From assembly GCA_037441705.1 (NCBI GenBank), contig JBBIRR010000001.1, positions 128,001 through 192,000 of the forward strand: a stretch of DNA of 64,000 nt, written 5' to 3'. This document shows, one piece after another, positions 5,653 through 55,607 of the stretch. The notes under the pieces are model-generated. The model ran no database searches, had not been told where the DNA came from, and worked only from the letters and a program-made list of their open reading frames with translations. The translations under genes were made by a program, and so were the position numbers. Position 1 is the first letter of the stretch, and every line of letters begins with the position of its first letter. This stretch comes from Ignavibacteriales bacterium. Lineage in GTDB: Bacteria > Bacteroidota > Ignavibacteria > UBA10030 > UBA6906.

Positions 5653-5656
5653 AAAA

Positions 5657-33045: not shown

Positions 33046-33051
33046 CGCCTG

Positions 33052-33125: not shown

Positions 33126-33145
33126 AAGTTTCAAACTGCATCCCC

Positions 33146-33174
33146 AAGATACGAAACGCTGCCAACGAGTGCAA
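33146..33174 (-). promoter_or_regulatory. Sigma70 promoter of tRNA-Pro
   Basis: TTGCAC-17 nt-TATCTT about 20 nt upstream of the tRNA. Confidence 0.65.
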
Positions 33175-33201
33175 GCACACGGCTGATTTCGTTCGTTATG
33201 G

Positions 33202-35259
33202 CTAACGGCTCGGCTCTACCGCCTTGCGCCCTCCTTCAAGCGGTCCGAAGAAGTTTCCCGTCTGAAGAAACAGCGTGAGCGTTCGAATACTCCAGTTGTA
33301 GTAGTTGTTCTCCAGAGGAAGAGTCGTTGCGACGTTGATGCGATAGGCGGCATCGGCAAATGCCTGGTACGCGGGCCCCGCCGCCATCGCCGCGGCACCG
33401 AACGGGCCGATGAAGATGCTCGTCGGCTCGCTGCGCACCGGCTTGCCGTCGAGGTAATACCCGTTGGCAATATTCGCCGCCCCGATGGACGATGCGAAGC
33501 GAACGATTTTCTCGCAGAACTGCCGCGCGTCTTCGTTGCCGTACCACAGATAGTCCAGCGCGATGCGCCACGGCGTGCGCGCTGCATCCCAATAGTAGTA
33601 ATAGCTCTGCGCGCGTTCGGGCGCAGGCGAGCCGTCCGCGCGACACCAGTCGGGCACCAGACCCGTTTCGGGGTGTGCGCATTTCTTGAGAATCTCATAG
33701 CATCGAGCAATCACTTTGCGCCACCCGGCGTTTCCCGTCGCCGCCTCGAAGGCGCGGTAGTACGCGGGAGCGAAGTAGGACGGATTGAGCATGTGCGAGC
33801 CGCCCCAATCGCCGTCGCCGGGCTTGAGAACGAACGTGTTCTTTTCGACTTCATGTTCCCAGATGCGATTGATGAGAAGCACTGCTTCGTGTTTGTAGTT
33901 GATGGCGCCGTCACTGCACCACTGCCGGTCGGCGAGCAGCAGTGCGAATGCGGCATCCTCATCGGCATCCGTTGCGGCGCCTCCTTCGAGCACCTCGCAG
34001 GTGCTGCCGATGTGCCATTCCATCAGCCCGCGCTCATTCATGAACTTCTTGTAATACAACCAGAGATCATCGAAGAGCGGACGGTCGTTGAAGTTCACGG
34101 CAAGCAGCATCCCATAGCCGATGCCCTCGGACGTCGTCGAGCTCATGTCATCGAACAGAACGCGACGAAGTCCGCACGCGCTATCGCCTGTCACATACGC
34201 ACTCTTCCAACTTTCGTACGACCGCTGCGCGTCAACATGGTTCCGGTATTTGCTCATGATGCCGAACGGGTATGCTGCATTCTGCGGAAAGGGAAACGTC
34301 ACGCAGCCGCCGGCGTTCTTCGTTGACAGGATGGTGCCACTCGTGCCCACGATCAGGCCAACGACAGAATCGGCCATCGCAACGCCGCGCAAATCCTGTT
34401 CGGTCCCACTCGGTCGGCTCACCCACGTGAAACCACCGTCGGTCGAGCGGAGGATGGTTCCGCGTGACCCCACAACCGTCGCGTCGTGCAACGAAGAGGT
34501 CGCCACGTCCCAAAGATCGTGCGTCGTTCCCGATCGTACAGCAGTCCAGCTCACGCCTCCGTTTTCGGTCCGCAAGATGGTTCCTTTATCTCCGACGGCA
34601 AATCCATGTCTGTTTGTGGCAAAACGCATGCGGTAGAGCATCCCCTCCGATCCCTCGGCCACACGCGTCCACGATTCACCTGCATTCGTGGTCCGCAGGA
34701 TGATGCCGTTCGAACCGCAAGCCAGAAAGGTCATCGCTTCAAGGCACTGGACGCCGCGCAAGTCGTTGTTAAACCCGCTCGTACTTTCGGTCCATGTCGT
34801 TCCTCCATCCGTCGTTCGAAGAACAACCCCGCCGTATCCTACGGCAAGGCCCGTCGTTGCCGTGCAGAATGAGACGTCGTACAACGACTTCGCCGTTACA
34901 CGCTGAACCGAGGTCCAGGTTTTTCCTCCATCCGTCGTTCGAAGAATGACGCCGTTCCATCCAACAACATAACCAACAAAAGGAGACACGAAGGCAACAC
35001 CGCTGAGCCAGGTGCCCGTTCCGCTTTGCTGCGCGCTCCACGTTGTTCCGCCATCCGCGCTGAAGAGAATCGTACCGCGTGCGCCGACGGCGACAGCGGT
35101 TCTTCTGTCGACAAAAGTAACGTCAGAGAGCGGAACGGTGACGCCGCTGGTTTGCTGCACCCACTGGGCGTGCAGGCGAGGACTGGCCGGCAGAAGAGTG
35201 AGAAGCCAGCAGGCGATTAAACGGAGAACAGGTTTCAGGCAAGATGTTGTGCGTAGCAT
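33202..35259 (-). CDS. YCF48/Asp-box beta-propeller fused to glycoside hydrolase family 8; no T9SS CTD
   Basis: Signal peptide; about 7 'G.ILRT.DGG.TW' repeats; GH8 motifs TSEGIGYGML, ATDADED, NPSYFAP, GLVPDWC, WDAARTPWR. Its ATG overlaps the upstream TGA. Confidence 0.9.
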   Translation of the reverse strand: MLRTTSCLKPVLRLIACWLLTLLPASPRLHAQWVQQTSGVTVPLSDVTFVDRRTAVAVGARGTILFSADGGTTWSAQQSGTGTWLSGVAFVSPFVGYVVGWNGVILRTTDGGKTWTSVQRVTAKSLYDVSFCTATTGLAVGYGGVVLRTTDGGTTWTESTSGFNNDLRGVQCLEAMTFLACGSNGIILRTTNAGESWTRVAEGSEGMLYRMRFATNRHGFAVGDKGTILRTENGGVSWTAVRSGTTHDLWDVATSSLHDATVVGSRGTILRSTDGGFTWVSRPSGTEQDLRGVAMADSVVGLIVGTSGTILSTKNAGGCVTFPFPQNAAYPFGIMSKYRNHVDAQRSYESWKSAYVTGDSACGLRRVLFDDMSSTTSEGIGYGMLLAVNFNDRPLFDDLWLYYKKFMNERGLMEWHIGSTCEVLEGGAATDADEDAAFALLLADRQWCSDGAINYKHEAVLLINRIWEHEVEKNTFVLKPGDGDWGGSHMLNPSYFAPAYYRAFEAATGNAGWRKVIARCYEILKKCAHPETGLVPDWCRADGSPAPERAQSYYYYWDAARTPWRIALDYLWYGNEDARQFCEKIVRFASSIGAANIANGYYLDGKPVRSEPTSIFIGPFGAAAMAAGPAYQAFADAAYRINVATTLPLENNYYNWSIRTLTLFLQTGNFFGPLEGGRKAVEPSR

Positions 35260-36386
35260 CAGTGCTCCGTGGGAATTGATGATTCGGCAGCTTTGCGCAG
35301 TGTTTCGAGAATGACTTCTGCGTTGCGCTTCAGGTTGAATTCCCGCTCCGCTTTACGCCGTGCATTGGCGCCAAACTCACGACGAAGAGCGGGGTTGTTC
35401 ATCAGCAGCAACAACCTCTCCGCCAGTGCCGCCTCATCCTCTCCACGAATCAGGAAGCCGGTGGTACCGTCCGTCACCATTTCGTCAATGCTGCCAAGCT
35501 CGGTAGCCACTACCGGAAGGTTCATGGCCATTGCTTCCATGATGGCAAGCGGAAAGAAGTCCGCGCGTGTCGGCAGCACGAACACGTCGGCCTGCTTGTA
35601 GAGGTGCAGGAGTTCGGGACTGTTGGGAGAGATGTTCGAATGAATGACGACATTCCGCGGCCTTTCGCCGGCCGCGCTGTTTGTCACAAGATGAAACTCG
35701 CAATTCCTGAACGGCTCATGGCGGGCGATGTTACACAGCAAATCTCCACCCTTCCGCATAAAATGATTGCCCACAAACAGGATGCGCACCTTCGACCCCG
35801 GCATTCGTTCAGAACTTTTCCAGAGATCGAGATCCACGCCCGGCGCAAGGACGCGAATTCTCCTCTCATCCACCCCATAATGTTCGATCAGCGATCGTTT
35901 CACCCAGTTCGACCAGGGCAGAAGAAAGGTCGTGTTCCGATACGTCCGACACGTTTGGAGAAACTTGATGCGTTCGATCAAATGCTTTTGCGATGAAGTA
36001 GGAACGCCGTACCACGCGCGATGCTCTTCCATCAGCAACGGTGTCACATCCATCGCCATCACGCTGGGGACGCGCTTGCGGAAGGTGTTCAAGAACGTCG
36101 CAGGAATGTGGTCGTTGAAATAGACTGCGTCGAATTTCTTTCCCGCTTTCAGCTCCCTGCGGATGCGCGACCGAGCAATCCATCCCCCCTTCAGAGTCCA
36201 GTTCAGCGAAATCGGAGGAATGCGCGCAAGAAGCTCCGGCGGACTGTACTCGATGGGAAGCCACGTGCACTCGACATCGTCACGCGCAGAGACGACGCCC
36301 CGCAGGTTCTGCAGCACCGTCGCCGTACCGCCAAACCACATGCCGGTGAACAAGAAACTCGGTTTGCCCTTATCCGACGAATTCAT
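35259..36386 (-). CDS. Glycosyltransferase family 4
   Basis: PGVD; LFVG...RKGGD; ADVFVLPT...EAMAM.LPVV. Start taken at MNSSDK. Confidence 0.9.
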   Translation of the reverse strand: MNSSDKGKPSFLFTGMWFGGTATVLQNLRGVVSARDDVECTWLPIEYSPPELLARIPPISLNWTLKGGWIARSRIRRELKAGKKFDAVYFNDHIPATFLNTFRKRVPSVMAMDVTPLLMEEHRAWYGVPTSSQKHLIERIKFLQTCRTYRNTTFLLPWSNWVKRSLIEHYGVDERRIRVLAPGVDLDLWKSSERMPGSKVRILFVGNHFMRKGGDLLCNIARHEPFRNCEFHLVTNSAAGERPRNVVIHSNISPNSPELLHLYKQADVFVLPTRADFFPLAIMEAMAMNLPVVATELGSIDEMVTDGTTGFLIRGEDEAALAERLLLLMNNPALRREFGANARRKAEREFNLKRNAEVILETLRKAAESSIPTEH

Positions 36387-36438
36387 GATGCCGTGTTTCC
36401 ATTTGAATTTTTTGTTCGGGTAATGATATTCAATTCGC

Positions 36439-37806
36439 CTACCGCACCAATCGCCCATCCGTGAGGTACGCAGTAAGCAGCCTCGCAACAAAAGCATGCC
36501 CTCGTTCATTCCAATGAGGGTCATCATCAAGCACGAGCGGAAACTCCTCACAGGCACGAAATGCAGGCAGCAGGTTGAACACTACGTAAGGCAACTGCGG
36601 CGCCGCTTCATCAAAGAATCTGAAGTACTCATCCTGATATGGCTCCGAGAGTGCGTACTCGTTTTTCTCCCAGTTGTTGGGACATTCATTCGGATTCCAA
36701 TGCTGAAATCGAGGAGTGACGACCAGAATGAACATCGCGCCAATGTCGTTGGCCTTTGAGGCAATACGATTGATGTGCGCCAGAGTGTTCAAGAAGTACC
36801 CTCGTGTGCTTGCCAGAGGATGTCGGTAAATGAAGAATCGGTTGTGCTCAACGACGCCATCAATCTTCACTGCAAAGTCATAATAGTCATATCCCGCCTG
36901 ACGGGTCACGCTTGCTCTTGCATCGCCCCTGTTCGACAGAGCGTAGCGCACGACACTGAACGGGTAGCTGAGATATCGGCGTATCTTTTCAAGTTGGAAG
37001 GATGACACGTTCCCAAGCGCAGTGTGAAAGCCCATCTCCTCGGTAGACGATTCAGCCAAGTTGAATTGGCTCTGGTCACCATCGCCCTGTATCTCTGCTG
37101 CATATTTCATGTCATCACCGATATCCGTTGCATCCAGAAAAAGGATAACGTGAGTGGGCGCGTAATGGATCACGATGCCGGAGAACAGTCGCTCTTCCAG
37201 AAGTGGCGAGTAGCTGTTGATCCCGGCATTGAGCACCGCAACGTCATTGCGGCCCAGTTGTTCTCGGAGCAGACGCTCGGCGACAGCCGGAAAAGCAAAC
37301 TCCTGTCTCACACACTTTCCGAAGGTGAAGGAATCGCCAAGAAGAGCAATTCGGGTCTTGAAGGCGCGGAATGCTTCACGCGAGTACAAGCTCCTGAGGC
37401 CGTCCTCATTCGTTCGGACAATAACCCGCTTCCCATCGAAGATGCCTGCATTCATTTCCGCGTTCTTCGGAAGCAGATGGTGGTATGTTCTGGAACTGAT
37501 GCCATGGAACTCCGGCATGGCAGCAGGCGGATTGAACATGCGCAGACCCAATTCCACCCCCACCAGGGTTACCAGTACCGTACCCACCAGAAGGAGAATT
37601 TCTCTCCATCGCTGGCGTCCTCTGAACGCGAGGAAGATTCCGATGATGCTGAGGAGCCAATAGGCAACCAGCGAGCCAATGAGTGCCTCGTCAACTTTCC
37701 CGTCCGCCGCAATGAAATCAAGAAGATGCCAGTACACAGCCAGAGCGGCCATCAGGAAGAAGGCCGTAATCGCAACCATGAGGGTGCTATCGGTATTCCA
37801 CTTCAT
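36439..37806 (-). CDS. Membrane-anchored SGNH/GDSL protein (AlgX/AlgJ-like O-acetyltransferase or esterase)
   Basis: Three N-terminal TMs; TNEDGLR; LGDSFTFG; NAGINSY; D-P-H in DDPHWNERGH. Confidence 0.8.
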   Translation of the reverse strand: MKWNTDSTLMVAITAFFLMAALAVYWHLLDFIAADGKVDEALIGSLVAYWLLSIIGIFLAFRGRQRWREILLLVGTVLVTLVGVELGLRMFNPPAAMPEFHGISSRTYHHLLPKNAEMNAGIFDGKRVIVRTNEDGLRSLYSREAFRAFKTRIALLGDSFTFGKCVRQEFAFPAVAERLLREQLGRNDVAVLNAGINSYSPLLEERLFSGIVIHYAPTHVILFLDATDIGDDMKYAAEIQGDGDQSQFNLAESSTEEMGFHTALGNVSSFQLEKIRRYLSYPFSVVRYALSNRGDARASVTRQAGYDYYDFAVKIDGVVEHNRFFIYRHPLASTRGYFLNTLAHINRIASKANDIGAMFILVVTPRFQHWNPNECPNNWEKNEYALSEPYQDEYFRFFDEAAPQLPYVVFNLLPAFRACEEFPLVLDDDPHWNERGHAFVARLLTAYLTDGRLVR

Positions 37807-38996
37807 GCAGCAAAGTCGTTGCAGCTGTTGGATGATTTCCGTTCTACAACATTCCTCAACTCGTGGAGGCTTTCCGCGTTCCAGCGCTCGACAAAGCGAT
37901 ACGCAGCGCGAGCCAGTGAACGGGCACGAGCGGCATCGCGGGCGACATGCAACACGGCTTGCGCAAAATCGTCGGGCGAGTCTGCAACGAGAAACGCCTG
38001 CCCGGCTCCATCCTCAAGACCACGCGACCCGGCAGACGTTGTGACGACCGGCCTCCCGTAGCCAAGCGCCTCGATGGTCTTGATGCACAGTCCGGTGCTG
38101 AACTCAATGGGATTTACGACAATATCAGCCACTTCGTACAGAGAATCAAGATCATCCACCACGCCGTGCTTGATGCAGCCCTCGGCATCCGGCACGTTGT
38201 CACAAATCTGCCCGGCAAGGTGTAACATGGCGTGCGGTACTACGCGTCGAATGCGCGGAAACGTTTGTGCGAGAAAGGAACGAAGACCGTGAATGTTCGT
38301 CCCCGCATCCGAACCGATAAACAGGAGGTTCGCCTCATTTCTCTCTCGCGGAGGCAGGGCGCGAAGCGGAGCAATATGCCGGACGGTAATGACCGGCCTG
38401 GATGTGAGCCGCGAGAAATATTCCCTTTCCTGATCCTGAATTGCTACAACGACATCGGCGCGGTTCAAGGCTTTCGCTTCTTCCTTCGCGGTAGTACAGT
38501 ACCATCCGTAGTCTTGCCCCGCTTTGCGATACAGCATGTGTCGCCTGGTGAATACGTCGTGCGTGTCGATGATCTTCAGAACGCTATCGTCGAAACAGTC
38601 CAACGCTTTCGACCAAAAGATATATTCGACAATCACCACATCGAAGCGTGTGGACTTCGCCAACTCTCGCAGGACGAGATCGAGCGCGTTGTCGTACCGA
38701 TAGTCCACCGGCTGGATTTCCAAGAATCCCGGCTCGAAGAGAAAACGCAAGCGGGAGATGTAGCGCCGGAGACTCCGCGGCGGATGACGATACGCGACAC
38801 GATAGAAATGCTTGCCCCACCACCGTGCCATCGCCTCCTCGTCCGCCTTCCATGGTTCGGTGTTCACGCAGAGAAAGTGCACTTCATGTCCCATGTCACG
38901 CAGACTTTGCAGCAGCCGCTGAATGCGCGTGCGGTTACCCGCGATCTGGGGGTGGGTGGGGATGGGTGAGATGAGGAGAATGCGGCGCCTCATCAT
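37803..38996 (-). CDS. Glycosyltransferase family 4-like
   Basis: ILLISP.PTHP..AGN; IDTHD; STGLCIKTIEALGYGRPVVTT. Confidence 0.88.
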   Translation of the reverse strand: MMRRRILLISPIPTHPQIAGNRTRIQRLLQSLRDMGHEVHFLCVNTEPWKADEEAMARWWGKHFYRVAYRHPPRSLRRYISRLRFLFEPGFLEIQPVDYRYDNALDLVLRELAKSTRFDVVIVEYIFWSKALDCFDDSVLKIIDTHDVFTRRHMLYRKAGQDYGWYCTTAKEEAKALNRADVVVAIQDQEREYFSRLTSRPVITVRHIAPLRALPPRERNEANLLFIGSDAGTNIHGLRSFLAQTFPRIRRVVPHAMLHLAGQICDNVPDAEGCIKHGVVDDLDSLYEVADIVVNPIEFSTGLCIKTIEALGYGRPVVTTSAGSRGLEDGAGQAFLVADSPDDFAQAVLHVARDAARARSLARAAYRFVERWNAESLHELRNVVERKSSNSCNDFAA

Positions 38997-40258
38997 CGCT
39001 TCCCGCTCAGGTGATTCTGTATCAAGGACTTCAGTACGTCAAGTGTCTCGCGAATCATCCGGTCTTCCGAAAACTGCTGCACCCTTGCCTCCGCAGCGAT
39101 GGCCATCGCCCTCATCTGGTCAGGATGGGTTAACGCCCATTGGAGCGCTTCTGCCCAACCGTGCACGTCGCTTGCGGACACGATCAGACCGTCTACGCGA
39201 TGACGAATGACTTCGGGGATTCCTCCTACATCCGAGGCAACAACAGGAACTCGCTGTGCCATGGCTTCGAGTATGGTAAACGGCAGCCCTTCGAATTCTG
39301 TGGGCAATACAAAAAGATCTGCCGCGCGCATCAGGCGCGGCACATCCGACCGATATCCGAGAAAGAGAACGTTGCTGGCGATGCGATGCTCGGCCGCTTC
39401 TCTTGCAATGCACTCTTTATCTTTTCCCTCCCCCACCCATACACAACACACGTGGGAAAAATCTCGGATGATATCGGGTAGCACACGAACGAGAAGCCCA
39501 AAGCCTTTCGTCAACTCCAATCGGGCAACCGTGAGAAGCATGATCGAACGATCCGACAGGCCAAGTTCCGCTCGGACCTCCTCACGAACGGTGGCCGCAT
39601 CATCACGAGGGCTTGGCGATGTCAGACGAATCCCATTATAGATTCTGACAACTTCGTCTTTATCCAGGCCGAAGGTCTGACTGATAAGCGACCGGTTGAA
39701 ATCGGACACTGTGACCCAGCGCTGACGACGTTGTCGCGCCCAGTGGTAAACTCTTCGCTTCGCTGCGCGAAAGGCGAAAGGAAAAGGATACCCATGAAAA
39801 ACGACAGCCGTGGGGACGTTCACAACGGCACATCCGGCAATTATGCCAAGCCCGAAGGTTCCCCAGCATATGTTCAGAAGGACAACATCAGGTTGTACAC
39901 TTCGCAGGAGTTTCACCGTCCGCATCAACTGCGAGACCGTGCGCTGAACTTCGGCAAGCCGATGAAAGGTTCGCTCAACGCCTCTGAGCATTCGTCGAAC
40001 CACACTGCGCTCCCGCGGTCGTTCGTGTTTCCACGTGTGCTCGGTTTGCAGCACTGCAAAATGTTGTAGCGGGAGACGAAACGTATGGCACGCGATCCCA
40101 TCGTGCGTCAGTTCCTCGACCAACGGTAGCGTCTGCGGGGTCTCGGTCACAGCAGCATGAACATCCCATCCCTGAATGCAGGCGCGTGCAATGGTCTGCG
40201 CGTACTTTTCGGCACCTCCGCGTTCCACCGCAGGTATGATGACCAGAAGCTTCTTCAT
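38993..40258 (-). CDS. Glycosyltransferase family 4
   Basis: RGGAE; IYNGI; VARL...KG; EGLPFTILEAMA..VPVVASDVGG. Start at MKKLLV, with an ATGA overlap. Confidence 0.92.
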   Translation of the reverse strand: MKKLLVIIPAVERGGAEKYAQTIARACIQGWDVHAAVTETPQTLPLVEELTHDGIACHTFRLPLQHFAVLQTEHTWKHERPRERSVVRRMLRGVERTFHRLAEVQRTVSQLMRTVKLLRSVQPDVVLLNICWGTFGLGIIAGCAVVNVPTAVVFHGYPFPFAFRAAKRRVYHWARQRRQRWVTVSDFNRSLISQTFGLDKDEVVRIYNGIRLTSPSPRDDAATVREEVRAELGLSDRSIMLLTVARLELTKGFGLLVRVLPDIIRDFSHVCCVWVGEGKDKECIAREAAEHRIASNVLFLGYRSDVPRLMRAADLFVLPTEFEGLPFTILEAMAQRVPVVASDVGGIPEVIRHRVDGLIVSASDVHGWAEALQWALTHPDQMRAMAIAAEARVQQFSEDRMIRETLDVLKSLIQNHLSGKR

Positions 40259-41283
40259 TGCTTCGAACCTGCAAGCCATTGCAGCATCTGGCGTTCGAAC
40301 TGTTCTCCGTTCCAATCCAAAACAGAGAATCGAGGGAGTTGGAAGCAATCCATCCCTATCGTGACAGGGCTGTGCGTGACAGAACACGCAGCCACGTAGC
40401 CTTCGTTCCGTACGATTGCAGCTGTTTCATCCGTGTAGCGGCCAAAGGGATAGGAGAATGTGGTTATCTCCTGCTTCAGAAGCTCGCGAAGATACGACCT
40501 GCTTTCTCGGATCTCGTGCCGCTGCTGTTCCAGGGGTAGTTCCGTGAGCAGGGCGTGGGTGACCGTATGCGCGCCAATGCTGACAAGCCCTCCATCGGCC
40601 AACGTACATACTTCCTGGGGAGTGAGCGAACGGTGGCTTTCGCGCAGGCTGGGTTCGGTTGCTGCCCACGATTGGATCTCTGTCAGCAACTGCGTTCGGT
40701 GCTGATGCGGTACAGAGCGGAGTTTTTCCCACACGGCGTAGTAGAACTGCGTGCGCCGACTGGGCTCGCGCGTGTGCCTGCAATCGTGATGGTACTCCTC
40801 TTCACTGTAGACTTCGGCTCCTCCGAGGTCCCAGGTCCACTCCCCATCGCGAAGCGTGAGCCTCGATGGCAATCTACCGGGACGCAGCAGTGCTTGCTCT
40901 AATTCATCCCACCAGTACTCTTTGCGGGCGCCGAGATACCCTGTCGTCACAAAGACCGTCGCCGGGATTTCGTATCGTTCGAGGATGGGTTTGGCCTGAT
41001 ACAGGTTGTTTGCGTATCCATCATCGAAGGACACGACAACCGAGCGGTCCGCTAAACGTCCCTGATCCAAAGCGACCGGGAGTTCATGAAGATGAATGGG
41101 CCGCGCCCGCGTGCGGAGGATTCTCATCTGCATATCAAAATGTTCCGGGCTCACTCGGAGATACCACGGGTCGGCGTCAAGGTCACCCACCCGATGATAC
41201 ATGAGAATGATCGCGCGCGGCTGCTGCAATCCTCTGAAGTTCTGCTTCACCCACTGCAGGCGTGTAAGGCCGGGTACTCTCAT
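40255..41283 (-). CDS. Polysaccharide deacetylase (CE4/NodB)
   Basis: ILMYHRV; VSFDDGY; IGAHTVTH; FSYPFG; LPR. Start at MRVPGL, with an ATGA overlap. Confidence 0.92.
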   Translation of the reverse strand: MRVPGLTRLQWVKQNFRGLQQPRAIILMYHRVGDLDADPWYLRVSPEHFDMQMRILRTRARPIHLHELPVALDQGRLADRSVVVSFDDGYANNLYQAKPILERYEIPATVFVTTGYLGARKEYWWDELEQALLRPGRLPSRLTLRDGEWTWDLGGAEVYSEEEYHHDCRHTREPSRRTQFYYAVWEKLRSVPHQHRTQLLTEIQSWAATEPSLRESHRSLTPQEVCTLADGGLVSIGAHTVTHALLTELPLEQQRHEIRESRSYLRELLKQEITTFSYPFGRYTDETAAIVRNEGYVAACSVTHSPVTIGMDCFQLPRFSVLDWNGEQFERQMLQWLAGSKQ

Positions 41284-44119: not shown

Positions 44120-44145
44120 GGACGTGTACTTGAAAGCAAGATGGG

Positions 44146-45303: not shown

Positions 45304-45309
45304 TCTGCA

Positions 45310-46500: not shown

Positions 46501-46513
46501 GGAAACTCCTGAA

Positions 46514-47815: not shown

Positions 47816-47871
47816 GGCGCAAGCACAGCAAACAACGACAGGGTCTGGAAAGAGTTCGAATCATGATTCGC

Positions 47872-49353
47872 TCAAGGACTTGGCAGCGGGAGACGTCCGG
47901 AAACTGCCACAAGAGCATACAAAAAGCAGATGATAATGCCTGTTGGCAACATCACCCAGGCCCAATGGTGCCGGTGTTTGAAGCCCACGATTCCCTTCAT
48001 GCTCAGAGGCAAAAGCAATGGAATCACATCAATAGCATAGAGCATTCGTGCGGCAACCGCCATGTGGATGAGCGTAAAAGTCCCAACAGCCACAACAATC
48101 GGCCACGCGCGCGTCGGTAGGGCACGCGCACCACCGAGAAGGGCAAAGGCAAGAAACAGCCCGTGCTCCAGCATTAGAAAATAGTCGGAGAAGCTGGCTG
48201 CTTGACCGTAGGCCTCAGGAACTTTCCAGTTGAACCACAGCGGCAGGGCACGGTAGAAGGAAAGGAGAACGTACTCTCCGGGATGCGAGAGGATAATGCG
48301 CGCAGATTCCTTCTGCAACAGGCGGTCGAATTCTGCTTCGTTTTCGCGCCCCGTGAGTTCTGGATGTTTTGACACAAAGGCCAACAGCGCACGCTCGGTC
48401 CCCGGGCCCGCCACAAACGGTACGAACTTGCCCTCTTCCAAGAAATGGTTCTGACGATAGAGATTATACCCAAACAACGTTGTCCCAATAACCGGACGGC
48501 CGAACGCGAGATAGTTCCTCGCAATCCAAGGCAGTTGGACGGCAGAGAAGACAAGCAGGAATAAACCAACGGCACGGGCGTTCATCGCTGCACGTTGGTT
48601 GTTCAACGCCGGTTTCTTCCATGCAATCACAGCCAACCCCGTCAGCCCCAGAGCCACAGCCATGAATGCAGAGCGAGACAACACCGCCAGGCCCAGCATC
48701 AGGCCCGAGGCTGCCCACCAGCCGGTGCCGCCATCAGACCAAGCACGCGCGAAGAAGGCAAGCGACCATACGGCACACGCAGCAGCGATAAGGTCAACCT
48801 CCTTGGCGGAGACTTCTCGAATTGCCGGAAGGTACACAACCCAGAACAACGCGGAGATCATCGCAAGCCGGTTGTCCTCAAGCCTCCGTGCAAGAGCGAC
48901 GATGCCAAAGAGGGTTATGATCCGGATAGCGATGTGGAACGCGCCGAGCGCAAAGTACGAACCGCCTGCAAGCAGACCGATCCCGGCAAAGAGCAAGACG
49001 GGCACAGGCTCTCGTGCCGCGCTCACCTTATTGCTCGGACTGCTGAACGGGAAATACGATGGCGCAATGAAACTGTATCCTTCGCCCTTCCGCAGTGACT
49101 CGGCAATATCCCACGACATTCCGGTAAACGATATTGCTGAATGCCGTGAATGCCAAACATGATAACCATCGATCGCCACAATCATCAACGCCAGGGCGAG
49201 GAGGATGGTTATGGAAGAGCGATCGCCCCGAAGCAGGAATTGCTCCTTCACCATCCTCACAACACCTTCTATCCGTTTTCCAAGGTTCTGACTCATAAGA
49301 GAAAGAAGTTGAGCTTTTTGTGTGTCAGACGTGTGACGCCCACGAGTTGCCAT
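47872..49353 (-). CDS. Polytopic GT-C (ArnT/PMT-like) glycosyltransferase
   Basis: About 10 TM; IAESL..G.G...SAAREP.P; G...GLAVLSR; PWIARNY..FG. The true start may lie downstream. Confidence 0.75.
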   Translation of the reverse strand: MATRGRHTSDTQKAQLLSLMSQNLGKRIEGVVRMVKEQFLLRGDRSSITILLALALMIVAIDGYHVWHSRHSAISFTGMSWDIAESLRKGEGYSFIAPSYFPFSSPSNKVSAAREPVPVLLFAGIGLLAGGSYFALGAFHIAIRIITLFGIVALARRLEDNRLAMISALFWVVYLPAIREVSAKEVDLIAAACAVWSLAFFARAWSDGGTGWWAASGLMLGLAVLSRSAFMAVALGLTGLAVIAWKKPALNNQRAAMNARAVGLFLLVFSAVQLPWIARNYLAFGRPVIGTTLFGYNLYRQNHFLEEGKFVPFVAGPGTERALLAFVSKHPELTGRENEAEFDRLLQKESARIILSHPGEYVLLSFYRALPLWFNWKVPEAYGQAASFSDYFLMLEHGLFLAFALLGGARALPTRAWPIVVAVGTFTLIHMAVAARMLYAIDVIPLLLPLSMKGIVGFKHRHHWAWVMLPTGIIICFLYALVAVSGRLPLPSP

Positions 49354-49365
49354 CGCCGTCGTCGT

Positions 49366-50190
49366 TCAGATGACATCGGCAAATGTTCGCTCCGTTCGGC
49401 GGAAGTACCACATGCCCGAAAGCATCAACAGAGCGACAATCGAAATCGAAAGCACGAGCCCCGGCAGAAACAACTGCTGCGCTCCACCCAGGAGCGACCA
49501 GCGGATGCCGTCAATCCCCGCTGCCATTGGATTGACGTAGTACAGCAATCGCCATTGTTCCGGGATGACGCTGCTGGTGAACCCCACAGGCGAGACGTAC
49601 ACGCCAAGCTGAATGACAAATGGAATGATGTGCTGAAAATCCCGATACTTCACATTCAGCGCAGCGAACCACAGGCCCAGGCCGAGCGACGCGCCGAGTG
49701 TGAAAAGCAGAAACAGCGGAAACAGCACCACGCGGCCATCGGGAACGACGCCGTACCATCCCATCAGTCCCGCCAGCATCAGTGCGGAAATGCCGAAGTC
49801 AACCAGACTTGTGATGATGGCACTGAGCGGTATGATGAGACGCGGGAAATACACTTTCGAGATCATTCCTGCGTTCTTGGTCATGCTGTAGCTGCATTCG
49901 GACAGCCCGTTGGCAAAAAGTTGCCATGGAAGAATGCCGGCGAAAACCAGGAGAGGATACGGGACTCCTTCGGAAGGAAGCCCGGCGATTCTGCCGAAGA
50001 TGATCGTAAAGATGACCATTGTGAGCGCCGGACGCACAAACGCCCATGCAACGCCGATCACCGTCTGCTTGTAGCGGACGAGAATGTCGCGCCAGGCGAG
50101 AAAGAGGAACAGTTCGCGGTAGCGCCAGATATCGCGCCAGTACTGTGCTTCCGTCCTTCCTGCTTCGATGATGACTTCGGGTGTCTCCAC
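49366..50190 (-). CDS. wzm: Polysaccharide ABC transporter permease
   Basis: YRELFLFLAWRDILVRYKQT.IGVAW; KVYFPR; NPMA; ERTFADVI. Confidence 0.95.
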   Translation of the reverse strand: METPEVIIEAGRTEAQYWRDIWRYRELFLFLAWRDILVRYKQTVIGVAWAFVRPALTMVIFTIIFGRIAGLPSEGVPYPLLVFAGILPWQLFANGLSECSYSMTKNAGMISKVYFPRLIIPLSAIITSLVDFGISALMLAGLMGWYGVVPDGRVVLFPLFLLFTLGASLGLGLWFAALNVKYRDFQHIIPFVIQLGVYVSPVGFTSSVIPEQWRLLYYVNPMAAGIDGIRWSLLGGAQQLFLPGLVLSISIVALLMLSGMWYFRRTERTFADVI

Positions 50191-50227
50191 GGCGCCTGAA
50201 AAGTTTTGATAAGGTTCTGATTCTGAT

Positions 50228-51334
50228 TCACAGGGATCCGCTTCGAAGACGCGCCATCCGACCGTGATGAATTCTGTCGTACAACCGGCGCGGGCGTGCG
50301 TTTTCTCCTGTCGGAGGTTCCTGCTGAGCTGTGTGCGGCTGCGCGGCAGGTTCGGAATTCCCTTCTTTCTTTGTCAGAGCACCACGCAACGAACGCCACC
50401 CGCGGTCGTCCTGCAACAATCGTGATGTCACCGGATGGGTAATGAACCGAATCAGTGCCTTCAGCAGCGTGAGATGGAACTCGGAGGACACAATCCGCAA
50501 CAGGTCGGCGGCAAAGCTCCTCCACAGATACACAAGCGTCACTCCGTACTGACTCTGCCGGTTACTCTTGCCCGTAAGATATAAATAGAAGTAACTCTTG
50601 GAATATCGTGTGATAGATGCCGGCACCCGGGGATTGCGATGACGAAGTTCCGTCGTAAAAGCCGCAAAGGCCCGCTCCATCCGCCGGTGGTTTGCCGAGA
50701 GGCTGGTCAACACTTCGCGGTAGCCGACGAGAATCTTCGGCACAAGCCGATACTGAAAGCGTTCGGCAATCCGAAGGTACATATCCCACTCCTCGCACGG
50801 TGTCGTGGCGCCGTTGTACAGGCCCACAGCATCGAAGCAAGACCGACGGATCAACGCGCAGCTTCCGTTGCCGAGAAAGTTGGAGAACATGAGGTCGGCG
50901 ACCACATTACCCTCATATCTGTGCGTGATGGGAACAATGGGCCGATCATCTTCATCAATAATCATGGACCAGCAATAGATGAGGCCCACGCTGTCCTCGC
51001 AGTCCTGCATTACCCTCACCTGCTCGCTCAGTTTTTCCGGATACCACACGTCGTCCGAATCGAGCGGGGCAATAAGGTCGCCCTTCGATTGCTGAATGCC
51101 GAGGTTGCGTGCCGTGGCGACGCCGCCGTTGTCTTTCCGCAGCAGAACGACGCGCCCATCCTGCTGGCAGAATGACTCAACGATCTGCGGCGTCTCATCG
51201 GTCGAGCCGTCATCCACCACGATGATTTCCATGTTGGGATACGTCTGCCCCACCGCCGAACGCAGCGTGCGCTCGATGAAGCGTGCCGCGTTGTACGAAG
51301 GAATGACAACAGAAACCAAGGGATGTGTGGGCAC
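50228..51334 (-). CDS. Glycosyltransferase family 2
   Basis: VSVVIPSYN; VDDGSTD; ARNLG; LDSDDVW..KL. Confidence 0.93.
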   Translation of the reverse strand: MPTHPLVSVVIPSYNAARFIERTLRSAVGQTYPNMEIIVVDDGSTDETPQIVESFCQQDGRVVLLRKDNGGVATARNLGIQQSKGDLIAPLDSDDVWYPEKLSEQVRVMQDCEDSVGLIYCWSMIIDEDDRPIVPITHRYEGNVVADLMFSNFLGNGSCALIRRSCFDAVGLYNGATTPCEEWDMYLRIAERFQYRLVPKILVGYREVLTSLSANHRRMERAFAAFTTELRHRNPRVPASITRYSKSYFYLYLTGKSNRQSQYGVTLVYLWRSFAADLLRIVSSEFHLTLLKALIRFITHPVTSRLLQDDRGWRSLRGALTKKEGNSEPAAQPHTAQQEPPTGENARPRRLYDRIHHGRMARLRSGSL

Positions 51335-51433
51335 GGGTCTTCAGGGATCAAAGAGTTTGGTTCTACCGAAGCAACGTGAGAGAATTCCGGCTGCCATCGC
51401 ATGTTGCCGTCACAGGCGAGGGCACCGCCATCC

Positions 51434-54109
51434 TCATCGAACGAGAACAAGCTTACGTGTGGCAACGAAACTGCCTGCTCGGAGACGATAGTAGTATACA
51501 CCGCTGGCAAGCCCGTCACCATGAAAAACCACTTGATGATACCCGGCTTCCTGATGCTGCGCCACGAGGCGTGCCACCTCACGGCCGAGGCCATCATAGA
51601 CAACCAGCGAAACGACGCTTGCGCGCGGCAGACCGAACCGAATGAGCGTTGTCGGGTTTGCCGGATTGGGATAGTTTTGCAGCAGTTCGAATGCCTTCGG
51701 TGTTTCTGCAGCCTCGGCCACGTCAGTCAGATGAACACGAAAGTTCCGCACCTCACCGAACTGGCCCCATCCTGCTTCGTTCCTCGCTCGCACCCTCCAC
51801 CAATAACTTCTCGAGTTGGCAAGTTGCCGCGCAGTCGTTGTCGTATCAACCAGCAAGGAGTCGACAAGCGGCGAAGAGAAGAGCGAGTCTGTGGCCAGTT
51901 CAAGCCAGTAGCGCACAACGTCCGGCCGACTTTGACGCCAGATGAGACGGACCGTGTCCGTACCGATCAGCGCATTGGGCGCAGGCGAAACCAGCGCCAC
52001 CGGCTCGGGCAGCTGAACGAGCGTCCGGAAACTCCAGCGATCCGACCACGGACTTGTCCCACCGGCGTTCGTTGCATTAACCCTCCAGTAGTACCACTGG
52101 CCGCGCTGCAATCCTGCAACCGTGCGAGCTGTGTCGCTCAACGTGGAGTCATCGACCTCGAGCGCCGTGAACAGCGAATCGGCCGCCACCTGAAGGCGAT
52201 ACCGATCAGCCTCCGCGCTTCGATGCCAGACGACAGGAAGCGTCGTCGGGTGACCGACAGAGAGATTGGCCGGTGAAAGCAATTGCGGCGCAAGGGGCGC
52301 TGCAAGGACGGTCATGAAATTCCACCACGGACTGAATTCTCCCCACCCCATATCGTTCCTCGCACGTGCGCGCCAGTAGTAGCGCGTGTTGTTCGCCAGT
52401 TGGCTCACAGTCGTGGTCGTGTCGGTGAGAGATGTATCTCGCACGGCAGGCTGCGCGCTCGTGTCGGTTGAAAGCTCAAACCAGTATCCGCTTACGTTCA
52501 TTGGTCCATCACTCTCCCACCATAGTTTTTTTGTTGGTGAAATGACGGACGTTTGGTCCGCGCCGCGATGCCACATGAACGTCACGCTCGTCGGCTGGTT
52601 CAGAGCATTGTTGGGAGGGCTGAGCAAAGCAACCTGCATCGGAACGCCAAGCGTCTTGAAGCTCCGCCATGGAGAAAACGCGCTGGTGCCCGCGCCGTTC
52701 CTCGCATTCACCTTCCAATAGTACCACGTCAACGGCTGAAGATTCTCCAGTTGATAGGTCGTGTCGGTGATCAGCGAATCATTGACAACGAGTTGGATGA
52801 ACGACGTGTCGAGTGCAACCAGCACGCCATAGCTCGAGGCGGTGGACGACGTGCGCCAGAGAAGTGCTGTTGACGGTGGGTGACCGACGGACCCATTCAG
52901 CGGCGACACAAGCTCCGGGGCACTCGGCGGCAGAATCGGAACGCTGTCCAGCGGATTGAAGAAGTTCCCCGTCTGCAGGAACAGGGTGAGCGTTCTGAGG
53001 CTCCAGTTGTAGTAGTTGCCGTTCACAAAGGGCGGGACGGTTGCGACGTTATCGTCGTAGGCCGAATCGCAAAATGCCTGATACGCCGGAGTGGTCCCCA
53101 TCGAGCCGGCGGCAAACGGCCCGACGAACACGTTGATGTGCTGCTGCCCGATGGGAGTGCCGTCAAGGTAGTATCCCTCGCGGATATTGACTGAACCAAT
53201 CCCGCGTGCGAAGTCGGATATTTTTTGCAGGAACACTCTCGCCCGGTTGTCGCCAAACCACACGTAGTCAACGGCAATGCGCCAGGGCGTGCGGGTCGCG
53301 TCGTAGTAATAATAGTAGGCGAACCCGGGTGCCGGCTGCCCGCTCGCCTGACACCAGTCGGGCACGAGACCGGTGTTGACATGCGCGGCGCGCTGGAGAA
53401 TCTCATAACACTTCGTCACAACGCTATCCCATCCCGGATTGCCCGTGACGGCACGAAAGGCTCGATAGTACGCAGGAGCAAAGTAGGATGGATTGAGAAC
53501 GTGCGACCCGCCCCAGTAATCGCCGGGCTTCAGCACGTACGTGTTGGGTTCAACTTCGTACTGGTAGATGCGATTGATTTGGGTGATTGCATGCTGAAGA
53601 TAATTGATCGCGCCGGTACTGCCCCACTGCTTATGTGCCAGCAGCAAAGCAAAGGCAGCATCTTCATCGGCGTCGGTTGCTCCGCCATCACCCAGAATCT
53701 GACCGCAATTACTGCCGATCCACCAGTGCATCATGCCGCGCGGGTCCATGTGCGCCATGTAGTAACGCCACAGATCATCGAACAACGCGCGATCGTTGTA
53801 GTTCACCGACAGCAGCATGCCGTAGGCAATCCCCTCCGAGTACGTCGAACTCATATCATTGAAGAGCACGCGGCGGTACCCGCATGCCCCGCTGGTGGTC
53901 ACATAGTTGTTTTTCCAGGCAAGGTACGACGATTCGGCAGGAACATGGCTTCGCGCGGTGGGCATGATGCCGTACGGGTACGTGGTGTTCTGGGGAAAGG
54001 GGTATCGCGCCTGCGCGTGTGCCGGCTCTACAGCGATGAAGCAGAGAAGCACAGCCTTGCATGCCGCAAGCAGTATTACGTCCGACGCGCGCGTAGGTTC
54101 ACCTCTCAT
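51434..54109 (-). CDS. Glycoside hydrolase family 8 with four FN3-like repeats and a T9SS-type CTD
   Basis: Signal peptide; YSEGIAYGML; ATDADED; YDATRTPWR; four 'L.SP.N...YYW.V.A.N..G...S....F' repeats; LLQNYPNPANP. Confidence 0.92.
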   Translation of the reverse strand: MRGEPTRASDVILLAACKAVLLCFIAVEPAHAQARYPFPQNTTYPYGIMPTARSHVPAESSYLAWKNNYVTTSGACGYRRVLFNDMSSTYSEGIAYGMLLSVNYNDRALFDDLWRYYMAHMDPRGMMHWWIGSNCGQILGDGGATDADEDAAFALLLAHKQWGSTGAINYLQHAITQINRIYQYEVEPNTYVLKPGDYWGGSHVLNPSYFAPAYYRAFRAVTGNPGWDSVVTKCYEILQRAAHVNTGLVPDWCQASGQPAPGFAYYYYYDATRTPWRIAVDYVWFGDNRARVFLQKISDFARGIGSVNIREGYYLDGTPIGQQHINVFVGPFAAGSMGTTPAYQAFCDSAYDDNVATVPPFVNGNYYNWSLRTLTLFLQTGNFFNPLDSVPILPPSAPELVSPLNGSVGHPPSTALLWRTSSTASSYGVLVALDTSFIQLVVNDSLITDTTYQLENLQPLTWYYWKVNARNGAGTSAFSPWRSFKTLGVPMQVALLSPPNNALNQPTSVTFMWHRGADQTSVISPTKKLWWESDGPMNVSGYWFELSTDTSAQPAVRDTSLTDTTTTVSQLANNTRYYWRARARNDMGWGEFSPWWNFMTVLAAPLAPQLLSPANLSVGHPTTLPVVWHRSAEADRYRLQVAADSLFTALEVDDSTLSDTARTVAGLQRGQWYYWRVNATNAGGTSPWSDRWSFRTLVQLPEPVALVSPAPNALIGTDTVRLIWRQSRPDVVRYWLELATDSLFSSPLVDSLLVDTTTTARQLANSRSYWWRVRARNEAGWGQFGEVRNFRVHLTDVAEAAETPKAFELLQNYPNPANPTTLIRFGLPRASVVSLVVYDGLGREVARLVAQHQEAGYHQVVFHGDGLASGVYYYRLRAGSFVATRKLVLVR

Positions 54110-54253
54110 TCGTGATTGTGTACAATGCCGGCGAGTGTGGGAAAATCATCGGCTGCAACCGGCACAGGACCCCTCAATGCAGTGACCGTCTCGGAGGGAA
54201 TATACGTGAGTCCATCACCGTAGTCAAGTTTCTGCGCTGCGAACGCTCGGCCC

Positions 54254-55432
54254 TTACGGGCGTGGATTTCGTGGCCTAAATTCAGCGACGCGCTTGCGAG
54301 AAAAGCCGAAGGAATTCTTGATGATGGCCACGATTCGCTGTGCCGCTTTCCCATCGCCGTAGGGGTTGACAGCGTTTGCCATCCTGCGGTACTCACGCTG
54401 ATCGTTCAGCAGTACAGTTGCTGCGCGGAAAATTCGCTCTTCGTTCAGCCCTACCAGACGTGCCGTACCGAATTGAATGGCCTCAGGACGCTCTGTCACC
54501 TCTCTCAGCACCAGCACCGGCTTTCCCAGCGCCGGCGCCTCTTCCTGTATCCCGCCTGAATCGGTGATGATCAGATGAGCCTTCGCCATGAGATGGATGA
54601 ATTCCAGATAGCCCAACGGCTCCAGAAGGCAGACGTTGGAGAGGCCGCCGAGAATCGGAACAACAACCTCGCGCACGACCGGATTGAGATGAACCGGAAA
54701 GACGAAGAGGTCCTCCGGATGACGCGACGCGAGCTTTTTCACTGCACGGCATGCGCCGCGCATCGGTTCCCCCCAATTCTCACGCCGGTGCATGGTCAAG
54801 AGAACAATCCGACGCGGCAATTGCATGATACGTGCAACGGTCCGTGCATGCGGCTTGAAGGGCCGTTGAAGCGCAATCCGTAGCGCGTCGATGACAGTAT
54901 TGCCGGTGACAAAAATCCGCTCGGGTGGATAATGCTCGGCGAGCAGTGCGTCCTTTGCCGCTTGCGTCGGGGCGAAGTGCAGGTCGGTCACCGAACTTGT
55001 AAGCCTGCGGTTGATTTCTTCCGGAAACGGATGCGCCTTGTCGTTCGTTCGTAAGCCGGCCTCAACATGTCCAACGGGAATGCGGCGATAGAAGGCCGCC
55101 AGGCTTCCCACGAACGTCGTGGTCGTATCCCCCTGGACGAGAACCATGTCCGGCTGTTCCTTTTCCAGAACGGCATCCAGGGCCGACATCGTTCTGCTGG
55201 TGAGCGTCGCAAGAGATTGCCGCGGCTGCATCAGGTTCAAATCGTGTTCGGGCCTGATGGCAAATACGTCCAACACCTGATCAAGCATGTGGCGGTGCTG
55301 CGCGGTCGCAATCGTTACCACACGAAACAACCGCGCTTGGTTCCTGAGGGCGAGAATGACGGGAGCTAATTTGATGGTATCCGGGCGCGTGCCGAAAATG
55401 ACTGCAATGCGTTTGCGCTGTTTCCGTTTCAT
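54254..55432 (-). CDS. wecB: UDP-N-acetylglucosamine 2-epimerase (non-hydrolysing)
   Basis: FGTRPD.IK; QH; VQGDT; HVEAGLR; PFPEE.NR; TDSGGIQEEAP; NPYGDG. Start at MKRKQR. Confidence 0.95.
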   Translation of the reverse strand: MKRKQRKRIAVIFGTRPDTIKLAPVILALRNQARLFRVVTIATAQHRHMLDQVLDVFAIRPEHDLNLMQPRQSLATLTSRTMSALDAVLEKEQPDMVLVQGDTTTTFVGSLAAFYRRIPVGHVEAGLRTNDKAHPFPEEINRRLTSSVTDLHFAPTQAAKDALLAEHYPPERIFVTGNTVIDALRIALQRPFKPHARTVARIMQLPRRIVLLTMHRRENWGEPMRGACRAVKKLASRHPEDLFVFPVHLNPVVREVVVPILGGLSNVCLLEPLGYLEFIHLMAKAHLIITDSGGIQEEAPALGKPVLVLREVTERPEAIQFGTARLVGLNEERIFRAATVLLNDQREYRRMANAVNPYGDGKAAQRIVAIIKNSFGFSRKRVAEFRPRNPRP

Positions 55433-55511
55433 GAGGTTCCGAGAGTATCCAGGCGCGGACACCAAGAAAGTACGTAATTCGGCAACGTCTTCCAACGCTC
55501 TGTGTGCTCTC

Positions 55512-55555: not shown

Positions 55556-55607
55556 GGCTCGGCGCTCTCCCCTGCCTCGTATTTAATTCGTCGTCCAGGT
55601 ACCGACC

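Follow-up and report, generated by a model that had tools for sequence, protein, structure and literature searches.

Two paralogous GH8 enzymes with different predicted destinations in a Wzm/Wzt glycan locus of an Ignavibacteriales bacterium

A stretch of 64,000 nucleotides from an Ignavibacteriales bacterium (assembly GCA_037441705.1, contig JBBIRR010000001.1, positions 128,001 to 192,000), referred to here as the window, carries a locus for the assembly of an O-polysaccharide-type glycan that depends on an ATP-binding cassette (ABC) transporter of the Wzm/Wzt type. Two paralogous glycoside hydrolase family 8 genes, GH8A and GH8B, lie towards the two ends of the locus and encode putative endo-beta-1,4-glycanases, one expected at the cell surface and the other in the periplasm. 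What is new here is that these two genes, together with a family 2 glycosyltransferase gene (GT2a), appear to form a GH8-GT2-GH8 cassette that is conserved in this lineage in differing surroundings. With a probability of about 45%, we think that both enzymes process a beta-1,4-linked glycan which the cell itself makes using the conserved GT2a and exports through Wzm/Wzt. An earlier, sequence-only reading of the window had proposed an ABC-exported glycan locus bracketed by two active-looking GH8 paralogues, and our analysis supports that proposal.

The two GH8 enzymes

The two GH8 genes are as follows (aa, amino acids; T9SS, type IX secretion system; CTD, C-terminal domain).
51434-54109, minus strand: GH8A, 891 aa, with a signal peptide, a GH8 domain (aa 38-379), four FN3-like repeats and a T9SS type A CTD (aa 813-889)
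33202-35259, minus strand: GH8B, 685 aa, with a signal peptide, a YCF48/BNR-type beta-propeller (aa ~30-317), a GH8 domain (aa 323-666) and no T9SS CTD

Exactly two GH8 copies were detected in the window by tblastn. Their catalytic domains are 61% identical over 391 aligned positions (E 2e-148), which bears out the close likeness that had been seen by eye, and the motif strings quoted at that time are visible in the alignment. Both proteins match PF01270 far above its cut-off of 24 (GH8A, 229.5 bits, profile positions 3-339 of 341; GH8B, 231.4 bits, positions 2-339). The best solved relative of both domains is Clostridium thermocellum CelA (1cem, 1kwf; E 2.1e-88, 300.8 bits), and further PDB matches are the glucanase 5xd0 (153 bits), chitosanases (~124 bits) and cellulose-synthase-associated enzymes (29-40 bits). 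Alignment to 1cem and 1kwf places residues equivalent to CelA Glu95, Asp152, Tyr215 and Asp278 in both enzymes, as had been claimed of the catalytic residues. The corresponding motifs are SEGIxYG, TDADED, NPSYF and Y(Y/W)DA(T/A)R, and the four residues are invariant in 19 sequences; the glutamate of SEGIGYG aligns with the CelA proton donor and the aspartate of Y-x-D-A with the Asp278 base. In the available text of PMC5407803, Glu95 is the donor, Asp152 and Tyr215 act in subsite -1, and a base at the Asp278 position defines subfamily GH8a. Both window enzymes are thus predicted to be CelA-type (GH8a) inverting endo-beta-1,4-glycanases.

The window enzymes have the same proton-donor Glu, subsite -1 Asp/Tyr and Asp278-position base as CelA. 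They differ from it in carrying either four FN3 repeats with a T9SS CTD or an N-terminal YCF48-type propeller, and in that their genes sit within a glycan biosynthesis and export block; their activity is predicted from sequence. CelA itself carries a dockerin.

Conservation was examined in an alignment of 139 GH8 domains, 24 from the clade that contains the window pair and 115 from outside it, in which every locus with a high-scoring segment pair >300 aa and no stops was included. In the 115 outside CelA-like domains 73 columns were conserved at >=85%, and 71 of these were equally conserved inside the clade. The two exceptions are a Val-to-Tyr change beside the SEG motif (58% Tyr) and a Glu that is retained in 62%. 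A remodelled active site signalling a new substrate was therefore rejected, and the retention of 71 of 73 columns means that specificity for an N-acetylmannosamine (ManNAc) polymer, to which the sequence-only reading had linked the locus, is not indicated. The top-scoring representative for the window GH8 domain was P0123, a protein of 3282 aa with two GH8 domains (53% identity), which pair with each other in the GH8 tree described below (SH-aLRT, an approximate likelihood ratio test, 88).

Sec-type signal peptides, read by eye, are present on both proteins and end in AHA and LHA, each followed by Q. The CTD of GH8A (aa 813-889) scores 35.6 bits with TIGR04183 against a cut-off of 23, and 23.9 with Pfam PF18962 (Por_Secre_tail), under its cut-off of 27; three of the stretches that by eye make up its four FN3-like repeats are above the threshold of Pfam fn3. 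In GH8B neither Pfam nor NCBIfam gave a match to a T9SS CTD. Its propeller matches Pfam PSII_BNR (YCF48-like) and Ycf48 structures in the PDB at ~E 1e-17. The CTD is absent from all eight YCF48-GH8 homologue clusters (59-98% identity) and from the orthologue in the closest locus found, L001 (see below), and is present in ~63 of the 88 listed YCF48-domain proteins that lack GH8. The difference in export proposed earlier, a T9SS signal on one GH8 and a signal peptide only on the other, is thus conserved across orthologues. With its T9SS sorting domain, GH8A is expected on the cell surface or outside the cell, and GH8B, having only a Sec signal and a propeller, is expected to remain in the periplasm.

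The glycan assembly block

The block comprises 16 tightly packed genes, all on the minus strand (33202-55543), as defined by the listing of open reading frames (ORFs), Pfam and NCBIfam. The ORF listing confirmed the co-directional cluster, including several overlapping genes, described from the sequence. Its members other than GH8A and GH8B, and its boundaries, are listed below in order of transcription; GT denotes glycosyltransferase and all scores are Pfam unless stated.
54254-55432, minus strand: wecB, non-hydrolysing UDP-GlcNAc 2-epimerase (PF02350, 406.6 bits; TIGR00236, 480.2 bits, cut-off 210); the longest ORF extends to a TTG at 55543 and the likely start is the ATG at 55432
50228-51334, minus strand: GT2a, 368 aa, soluble GT-A glycosyltransferase (PF00535, 134.1 bits)
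49366-50190, minus strand: wzm, ABC-2 type permease with five hydrophobic segments (PF01061, 78.4 bits)
47872-49353, minus strand, between wzm and wzt: GT-C fold membrane glycosyltransferase, PMT_2/ArnT-like, ~10 hydrophobic segments (PF13231, 43.4 bits, cut-off 26.1)
46514-47815, minus strand: wzt, ABC ATPase with a C-terminal Wzt carbohydrate-binding domain (PF00005, 84.2 bits; PF14524, 37.1 bits, cut-off 30.4)
45310-46500, minus strand: DegT/ArnB/PseC-family sugar aminotransferase (PF01041, 430.4 bits); the longest ORF extends to 46695 and the likely start is the ATG at 46500
44146-45303, minus strand: GT4a, glycosyltransferase
42182-44119, minus strand: X-GT4b, 645 aa, with a C-terminal GT4 domain (aa ~459-563) and a ~440-aa N-terminal region of no known family
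41280-42185, minus strand: GT2b, glycosyltransferase, ATG at 42185
40255-41283, minus strand: CE4, polysaccharide deacetylase-family protein (PF01522, 87.2 bits), likely ATG at 41283
38993-40258, minus strand: GT4c, glycosyltransferase
37803-38996, minus strand: GT4d, glycosyltransferase
36439-37806, minus strand: membrane-anchored SGNH/GDSL-like protein with three N-terminal hydrophobic, transmembrane (TM) segments; weak match (PF13472, Lipase_GDSL_2, 30.0 bits, under the cut-off of 32.9)
35259-36458, minus strand: GT4e, glycosyltransferase, start uncertain (36458 or 36386)
33051-33125, minus strand, downstream boundary: tRNA-Pro (GGG), 77 bases downstream of GH8B (ARAGORN; Rfam tRNA, 62.5 bits)
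55608-58324, plus strand, upstream boundary, divergent: PAS histidine kinase (55608-57695) and LuxR-type response regulator (57692-58324)

The composition of the block, with WecB, a DegT aminotransferase, two GT2 and five GT4 glycosyltransferases, CE4, GT-C, a membrane SGNH-like protein and Wzm/Wzt, is that of an O-polysaccharide-type, ABC-transporter-dependent assembly cluster. Wzt matches the structures 8dku and 7k2t of WzmWzt O-antigen transporters ("ABC transporter", E 1.5e-64) across aa 56-381, and its likeness to these and to 6oih takes in the ATPase as well as the C-terminal domain. In the closest relatives the carbohydrate-binding domain of Wzt is 63-69% identical. Wzm is of the ABC-2 permease type, and the scores with PF01061, PF00005 and PF14524 are all above cut-off. 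Scores with the NCBIfam equivalog models for galactan Wzm/Wzt and TagH were under their cut-offs. Pfam and NCBIfam found in the block no initiating phosphoglycosyltransferase of the WecA or WbaP type, no Wzy_C/WaaL-type protein, no methyltransferase and no kinase. Genes for initiation, capping and ligation often lie elsewhere in a genome, so their absence from the block does not exclude a Wzm/Wzt pathway. There is also no processive membrane synthase, co-polymerase or dedicated outer-membrane export protein of the Bcs, Pga, Pel, Pss or alginate systems in the block.

GT2a and GT2b are without TM or hydrophobic segments and are soluble. The DxDD motif of GT2a (D92/D94/D95) is invariant across orthologues (61-81% identity) and cyanobacterial homologues (40-49%), and its best PDB match is the C-terminal GT domain of chondroitin polymerase (E 1.3e-28). 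Among solved proteins GT2a is thus most like the glycosaminoglycan capsule polymerases of ABC-dependent pathways. For the GT-C protein no NCBIfam match was obtained, and its sole PDB match (E 0.12) is an unrelated receptor chimera. The aminotransferase scored under the cut-offs of the ArnB and PseC models of NCBIfam. No N-terminal signal peptide was seen by eye in the CE4 protein, using the N-terminus of its longest ORF.

Pfam and NCBIfam upheld the earlier labels of 15 of the 16 genes, weakly in the case of the SGNH-like protein. The label that fell was that of a ParB-like N-terminus in X-GT4b, for which there was no Pfam match at E<=1 and no PDB match at E<=0.01. The N-terminal ~440 aa (42800-44119) contain an HGHHR-like stretch that was probably taken for ParB. 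A system whose Wzt has a carbohydrate-binding domain is expected to have a chain-capping enzyme, and this N-terminal domain is a candidate. The DegT (ArnB-like) aminotransferase, GT2, CE4 and PMT_2/ArnT-like GT-C genes occur together at 40255-49353 on the minus strand, a set that to us recalls the Arn and Lgm modules for amino-sugar modification of lipid carriers. Contrary to this likeness, TM segments are missing from GT2b and none of the NCBIfam Arn models reached its cut-off.

The stop codon of GT4e and the start codon of GH8B share one base (TGATG), consistent with the translational coupling of GH8B to a glycosyltransferase described earlier. With the likeliest starts, 4-base overlaps occur at five junctions: X-GT4b/GT2b, GT2b/CE4, CE4/GT4c, GT4c/GT4d and GT4d/SGNH. 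Larger gaps are limited to wecB/GH8A (144 bases) and GH8A/GT2a (99 bases). The wecB/GH8A gap contains a sigma-70-like promoter match (TTGACT-17-TATATT, 10/12) at 54227-54199 on the minus strand, and separate transcription of GH8A and its downstream genes could start there. Promoter-like sites numbered 11 in 44000-56000, where 5.2+-2.1 were expected, and 4 in 32000-44000 (5.4 expected), and terminator-like sites were about as frequent as chance would give (11 for 10.9 expected, and 13 for 11.7). These scans are uninformative because the sigma-70 consensus may not suit this phylum.

Downstream the block ends at the tRNA-Pro gene, which was the sole match in the Rfam scan, and a LuxR-type response regulator. 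The divergent pair of PAS histidine kinase and LuxR-type regulator upstream is only a candidate regulator of the block. It opens a dense plus-strand run of signalling genes (55608-64000), the others encoding a response-regulator-PAS protein, a kinase of 962 aa that has five PAS domains, and a response-regulator-HDOD protein. Elsewhere in the window, minus-strand regions 748-7189 and 7270-10413 encode three further secreted proteins with T9SS-type CTDs, two of them with CarboxypepD_reg repeats, beside a LuxR-type response regulator and a Reg_prop/Y_Y_Y hybrid histidine kinase; the CTD-bearing proteins of the window include those at 748-2679 and 5657-7189, which are indirect support for the presence of a T9SS in the organism.

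Conservation in relatives

A word-indexed search with GH8B returned the eight propeller-GH8 homologue clusters and several GH8-FN3-CTD and shorter GH8-CTD proteins. A genome scan gave 79 loci, only one of them close (L001, "uncultured Chlorobi bacterium isolate CHB1", 76% identical). We searched all 79 by tblastn with 18 window proteins, the 16 of the block and the two boundary regulators, and annotated the ORFs of L001 with Pfam. In L001 a GH8-CTD gene, a GH8-FN3-CTD gene, an orthologue of GT2a (61%) and a YCF48-GH8 gene stand side by side in that order, flanked by genes for a PHO4 phosphate transporter and an electron-transfer flavoprotein (ETF); none of eight flank proteins had a match in the window. 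Two metagenome-assembled genomes (MAGs) encode the orthologues of GH8-FN3-CTD, GT2a and YCF48-GH8 under consecutive accessions (MBX2990027/28/29 and MCW5897418/19/20). The existence of these compact trios without a wzm/wzt block between their genes implies that the conserved unit is GH8-GT2-GH8 and not the whole locus.

Just upstream of the L001 cassette is a tRNA-Asn gene (L001 7405-7479, plus strand); the tRNA genes that border the cassette on either side could be a hint of island-like mobility. The two window GH8 genes are also direct DNA repeats ~19.7 kb apart (33236-33981 and 52947-53686), 71-83% identical over 72-167 nt, and this paralogy was the only result of the repeat search. Recombination between them would also delete GT2a, which is not what the compact relatives show.

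Whether the transporter is linked to the cassette in other relatives was assessed from searches with GT2a and Wzt and from cluster look-ups, taking as a linkage fingerprint an identical longest-contig value between GH8, GT2a and wzt homologues (identities to the window proteins in brackets).
Fingerprint 29355: YCF48-GH8 (85%), GH8-FN3-CTD, GT2a (81%), wzt (74%)
Fingerprint 23279: GT2a (80%), wzt (77%)
Fingerprints 25992, 232964 and 34525: GH8-CTD, GH8-FN3-CTD, wzt
Fingerprint 10938: GH8-CTD, wzt, which are hence <=10.9 kb apart
Fingerprint 70721: GT2a, wzt
Fingerprint 20804: YCF48-GH8, GT2a
Fingerprint 3387: GT2a, GH8-FN3 fragment

Orthologues of wzt thus share a fingerprint with GH8 and/or GT2a in at least seven fingerprints from relatives. 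Such exact coincidences are unlikely to arise by chance, suggesting that the linkage of GH8 or GT2a to Wzm/Wzt recurs in several sublineages, and the idea that the wzm/wzt block is private to this genome was dropped. The sequence-only reading had named unlinked GH8 genes in relatives as an outcome that would count against it. For the most part the genes appear linked, the compact trios of L001 and of the MBX/MCW genomes being contrary cases. The linkage therefore appears to be recurrent but not universal, being absent at this site in one sublineage.

A maximum-likelihood tree was built from 82 GH8 domains: the window pair, 59 domains from 57 proteins, the three L001 copies and 18 loci chosen from the 78 others to span taxa (the remaining 60 were omitted). 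All GH8s of the lineage group together in a single 24-row clade (SH-aLRT 99), within which the YCF48-GH8 fusions are a group of 10 rows (99). The genomes with compact trios (L001, P0009 and P0010) form one subclade (100), and the group containing the window is its sister (7 rows, 97). These clades indicate that the GH8 paralogues are old, have been retained and predate the divergence of the two gene arrangements. Fingerprints shared by wzt with GT2a or GH8 occur on both sides of the tree, and the simpler history is that the transporter block was lost once, in the L001/MBX sublineage.

The 78 loci other than L001 (39-50% identity) come from Flavobacterium, myxobacteria, a cellulolytic clostridium and others. 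Nine of them, all labelled Flavobacterium or [Flexibacter], have a GT2- or wecB-like gene ~7-8 kb away. The occurrence of GH8 within wzm/wzt clusters outside the lineage was considered and rejected, as no wzm match was obtained in the 78 loci and the GT2- and wecB-like genes of one Flavobacterium locus, L017, sit at the end of a different cluster, on the opposite strand. At L017 (F. pectinovorum; 1889-11341) a T9SS GH8 gene lies ~5-7 kb from this polysaccharide cluster end (GT2, Bac_transf, epimerase), and in an Ignavibacteria MAG (L002; 333-11656) a GH8-CTD gene lies ~4.7 kb downstream of Wzx-like, Wzy_C, GT9 and cytidylyltransferase genes. These two loci place GH8 clade members loosely near envelope-glycan genes beyond the lineage studied.

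Roles, precedents and significance

In the reading that we favour, a backbone with beta-1,4 linkages would be laid down with GT2a and both hydrolases would act on this glycan of the cell's own making. GH8B may trim or clear lipid-linked or stalled chains in the periplasm after export by Wzm/Wzt, and GH8A may cut the polymer at the surface, leading to its release, remodelling or dispersal; the division into periplasmic trimming and extracellular release is what we infer from the predicted compartments. The selected core would be the GH8-GT2-GH8 trio, with the export and decoration block an accessory kept here by most but not all sublineages. A functional tie is supported because the cassette persists amid changing surroundings, the linkage to the transporter recurs and GH8B is coupled to GT4e. 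The reading is also favoured by the tight co-directional packing, by catalytic residues intact in both copies, by the conserved split between compartments and by the age and retention of the paralogues. A bolder version, which we regard as unlikely, would have a cellulose-like or other beta-1,4 glycan exported by Wzm/Wzt and CelA-type GH8s recruited independently as a periplasmic editor and a T9SS-borne releaser, making GH8-GT2-GH8 a portable make-and-cut module for which the exporter is optional.

Several observations weigh against the favoured reading. No wzm, wzt or other block gene was found within the 21 kb examined at L001, and in neither L001 nor the MBX/MCW lineage do wzm and wzt lie between the genes of the trio. 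Among the 78 more distant loci there was no wzm match, and just four had ABC-ATPase matches to Wzt, at 26-28%. The fingerprints are matching numbers and not inspected contigs, and the signal peptides rest on reading by eye. Comparison of the Wzt carbohydrate-binding domain with that of the 25992/232964/10938 lineage gave no match better than E 0.87, with ATPase domains 70% identical, so that the exported glycans probably differ, at least in the recognised end, while the GH8s stay alike. The closest characterised relative of the GH8s is CelA, a true cellulase, the alignments give no apparent sign of a new specificity, and the sister of the 24-row clade consists of lone secreted GH8-CTD proteins of Ignavibacteria (SH-aLRT 86).

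The last points would fit foraging cellulases, GH8A cutting exogenous beta-1,4-glucans outside the cell and GH8B cutting them inside after uptake, with the position in a glycan locus mechanistically meaningless and owed, for instance, to shared regulation or an accident of history. Cytophaga hutchinsonii uses surface and periplasmic endoglucanases, and CelA is by far the best PDB match, with 71 of the 73 cellulase-conserved columns kept. The lone T9SS enzymes of the sister clade, the three GH8 genes in a row in L001, which resemble catabolic enzyme arrays, and the promoter-like site between wecB and GH8A (54227-54199) point the same way, as does the nature of the family, a very large one whose members are mostly secreted and multidomain; HMMER, run exhaustively with the GH8 domain as query, gave 4278 representatives at E<=0.001 and 991 at E<=1e-30, of very diverse lengths. 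Foraging would leave unexplained why a GT2 gene is kept between GH8 genes in three lineages with differing flanks, why co-location with wzt recurs and why the GH8B start overlaps the GT4e stop, and no beta-glucosidase, SusC/D pair or sugar transporter was present among the window ORFs scanned. We consider it somewhat unlikely, and more probable than the two explanations that follow.

Another possibility is that the Wzm/Wzt glycan is a lipopolysaccharide (LPS)-type polymer that holds GH8A, as a T9SS type A cargo, on the cell, the substrate of the GH8s being external. It was prompted by C. hutchinsonii, in which, according to the available part of PMC12860637, anchoring of T9SS cellulases depends on the CTD and on the LPS enzyme WaaL. 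The type A CTD of GH8A is above its NCBIfam cut-off, there are more CTD proteins in the window, and the locus has an O-polysaccharide-type Wzm/Wzt with a carbohydrate-binding domain. This explanation is very unlikely, accounting neither for GH8B, which lacks the CTD in every orthologue seen, nor for the persistence of the trio without wzm/wzt; in addition, the block has no WaaL/Wzy_C gene. It is similarly improbable that GH8-GT2-GH8 is an autonomous cassette and the 13-gene block from wzm to GT4e a variable polysaccharide island with no relation to it, lying between GT2a and GH8B because that site happens to be permissive. In its favour are the compact trio in L001 and two MAGs, the variation of the Wzt carbohydrate-binding domain between lineages, the tRNA gene at the block edge, and the G+C content at third codon positions, which is 0.57-0.66 in the inner genes from GT-C to SGNH (36000-49353), 0.68-0.69 in GH8A, GT2a and GH8B and 0.69-0.74 in the flanking housekeeping and regulator genes of the window. 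Against it, several sublineages, from both sides of the tree, have wzt together with GT2a or GH8 by fingerprint, and the translational coupling of GT4e and GH8B argues against a recent, neutral insertion.

The pairing of making and cutting genes is unusual but not unprecedented. The concept of a periplasmic GH8 endoglucanase encoded with the machinery for a beta-1,4-glucan is known from BcsZ/CMCax, as set out in the available text of PMC5407803, and the window shares with these systems the encoding of a GH8 alongside polymer-making genes. In sequence the enzymes are distant (PDB 3qxf, E 1.3e-9; 1wzz, E 2.7e-6), and GH8A and GH8B reach 61.1 and 79.6 bits with the NCBIfam BcsZ model NF008305 against a cut-off of 299. 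Scans of the 16 block proteins and of flank proteins gave no BcsA/BcsB-type cellulose synthase; in contrast to BcsZ systems, export in the window would be by Wzm/Wzt and not by a synthase, GT2a and GT2b being without TM segments. PssZ belongs to a Gram-positive, synthase-dependent system whose polymer is ManNAc-based. It is likewise a hydrolase of an exopolysaccharide operon that acts on the operon's own polymer, and the window locus also has WecB. The window GH8 matches 3ren, the best of the GH126-like PDB entries and one that we take to be the founder of GH126, at only E 2.5e-4, against 2.1e-88 for CelA, which places it outside that family. The sequence-only reading had treated Listeria PssZ as a GH8 enzyme, wrongly, since it is assigned to GH126 in the portion of PMC7479077 available to us. 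A BcsZ- or PssZ-like identity of the window GH8s was accordingly rejected on these scores and on the GH126 assignment; the enzymes are CelA-like members of GH8a by prediction.

Two endoglycanases of Sinorhizobium meliloti, ExoK and ExsH, cut the cell's own succinoglycan down to smaller forms, and exoK lies within the exo biosynthesis operon (PMC4916376, text available in part). As two hydrolases for one self-made glycan they are the closest functional precedent; unlike the window GH8s they do not bracket their locus, and they belong to an unrelated enzyme family. Both are GH16 enzymes of a Wzx/Wzy pathway, exported via the Sec and type I routes. Other hydrolases that accompany polymer synthesis are PslG, PelA, PgaB and AlgL. 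We found no report of a GH8 or other dedicated hydrolase in a Wzm/Wzt locus in the open-access literature, which is weak evidence.

Synthase-dependent exopolysaccharide systems, and some of the Wzx/Wzy type, characteristically have dedicated hydrolases, which serve in chain-length control, clearance of stalled polymer and biofilm dispersal. Should the window GH8s prove to be ordinary cellulases, the locus would caution against reading function from gene order in polysaccharide loci. If instead they act on the product of their locus as a two-compartment processing pair, the same logic, and the rule of hydrolase with synthesis known from BcsZ, PslG, PelA and PgaB, would extend to glycans made by ABC-transporter-dependent pathways. 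They would then be two ready enzymes with which the surface glycan of an uncultured lineage of the Fibrobacteres-Chlorobi-Bacteroidetes (FCB) group could be cut, and a natural pair for studying the targeting of one catalytic domain to two compartments.

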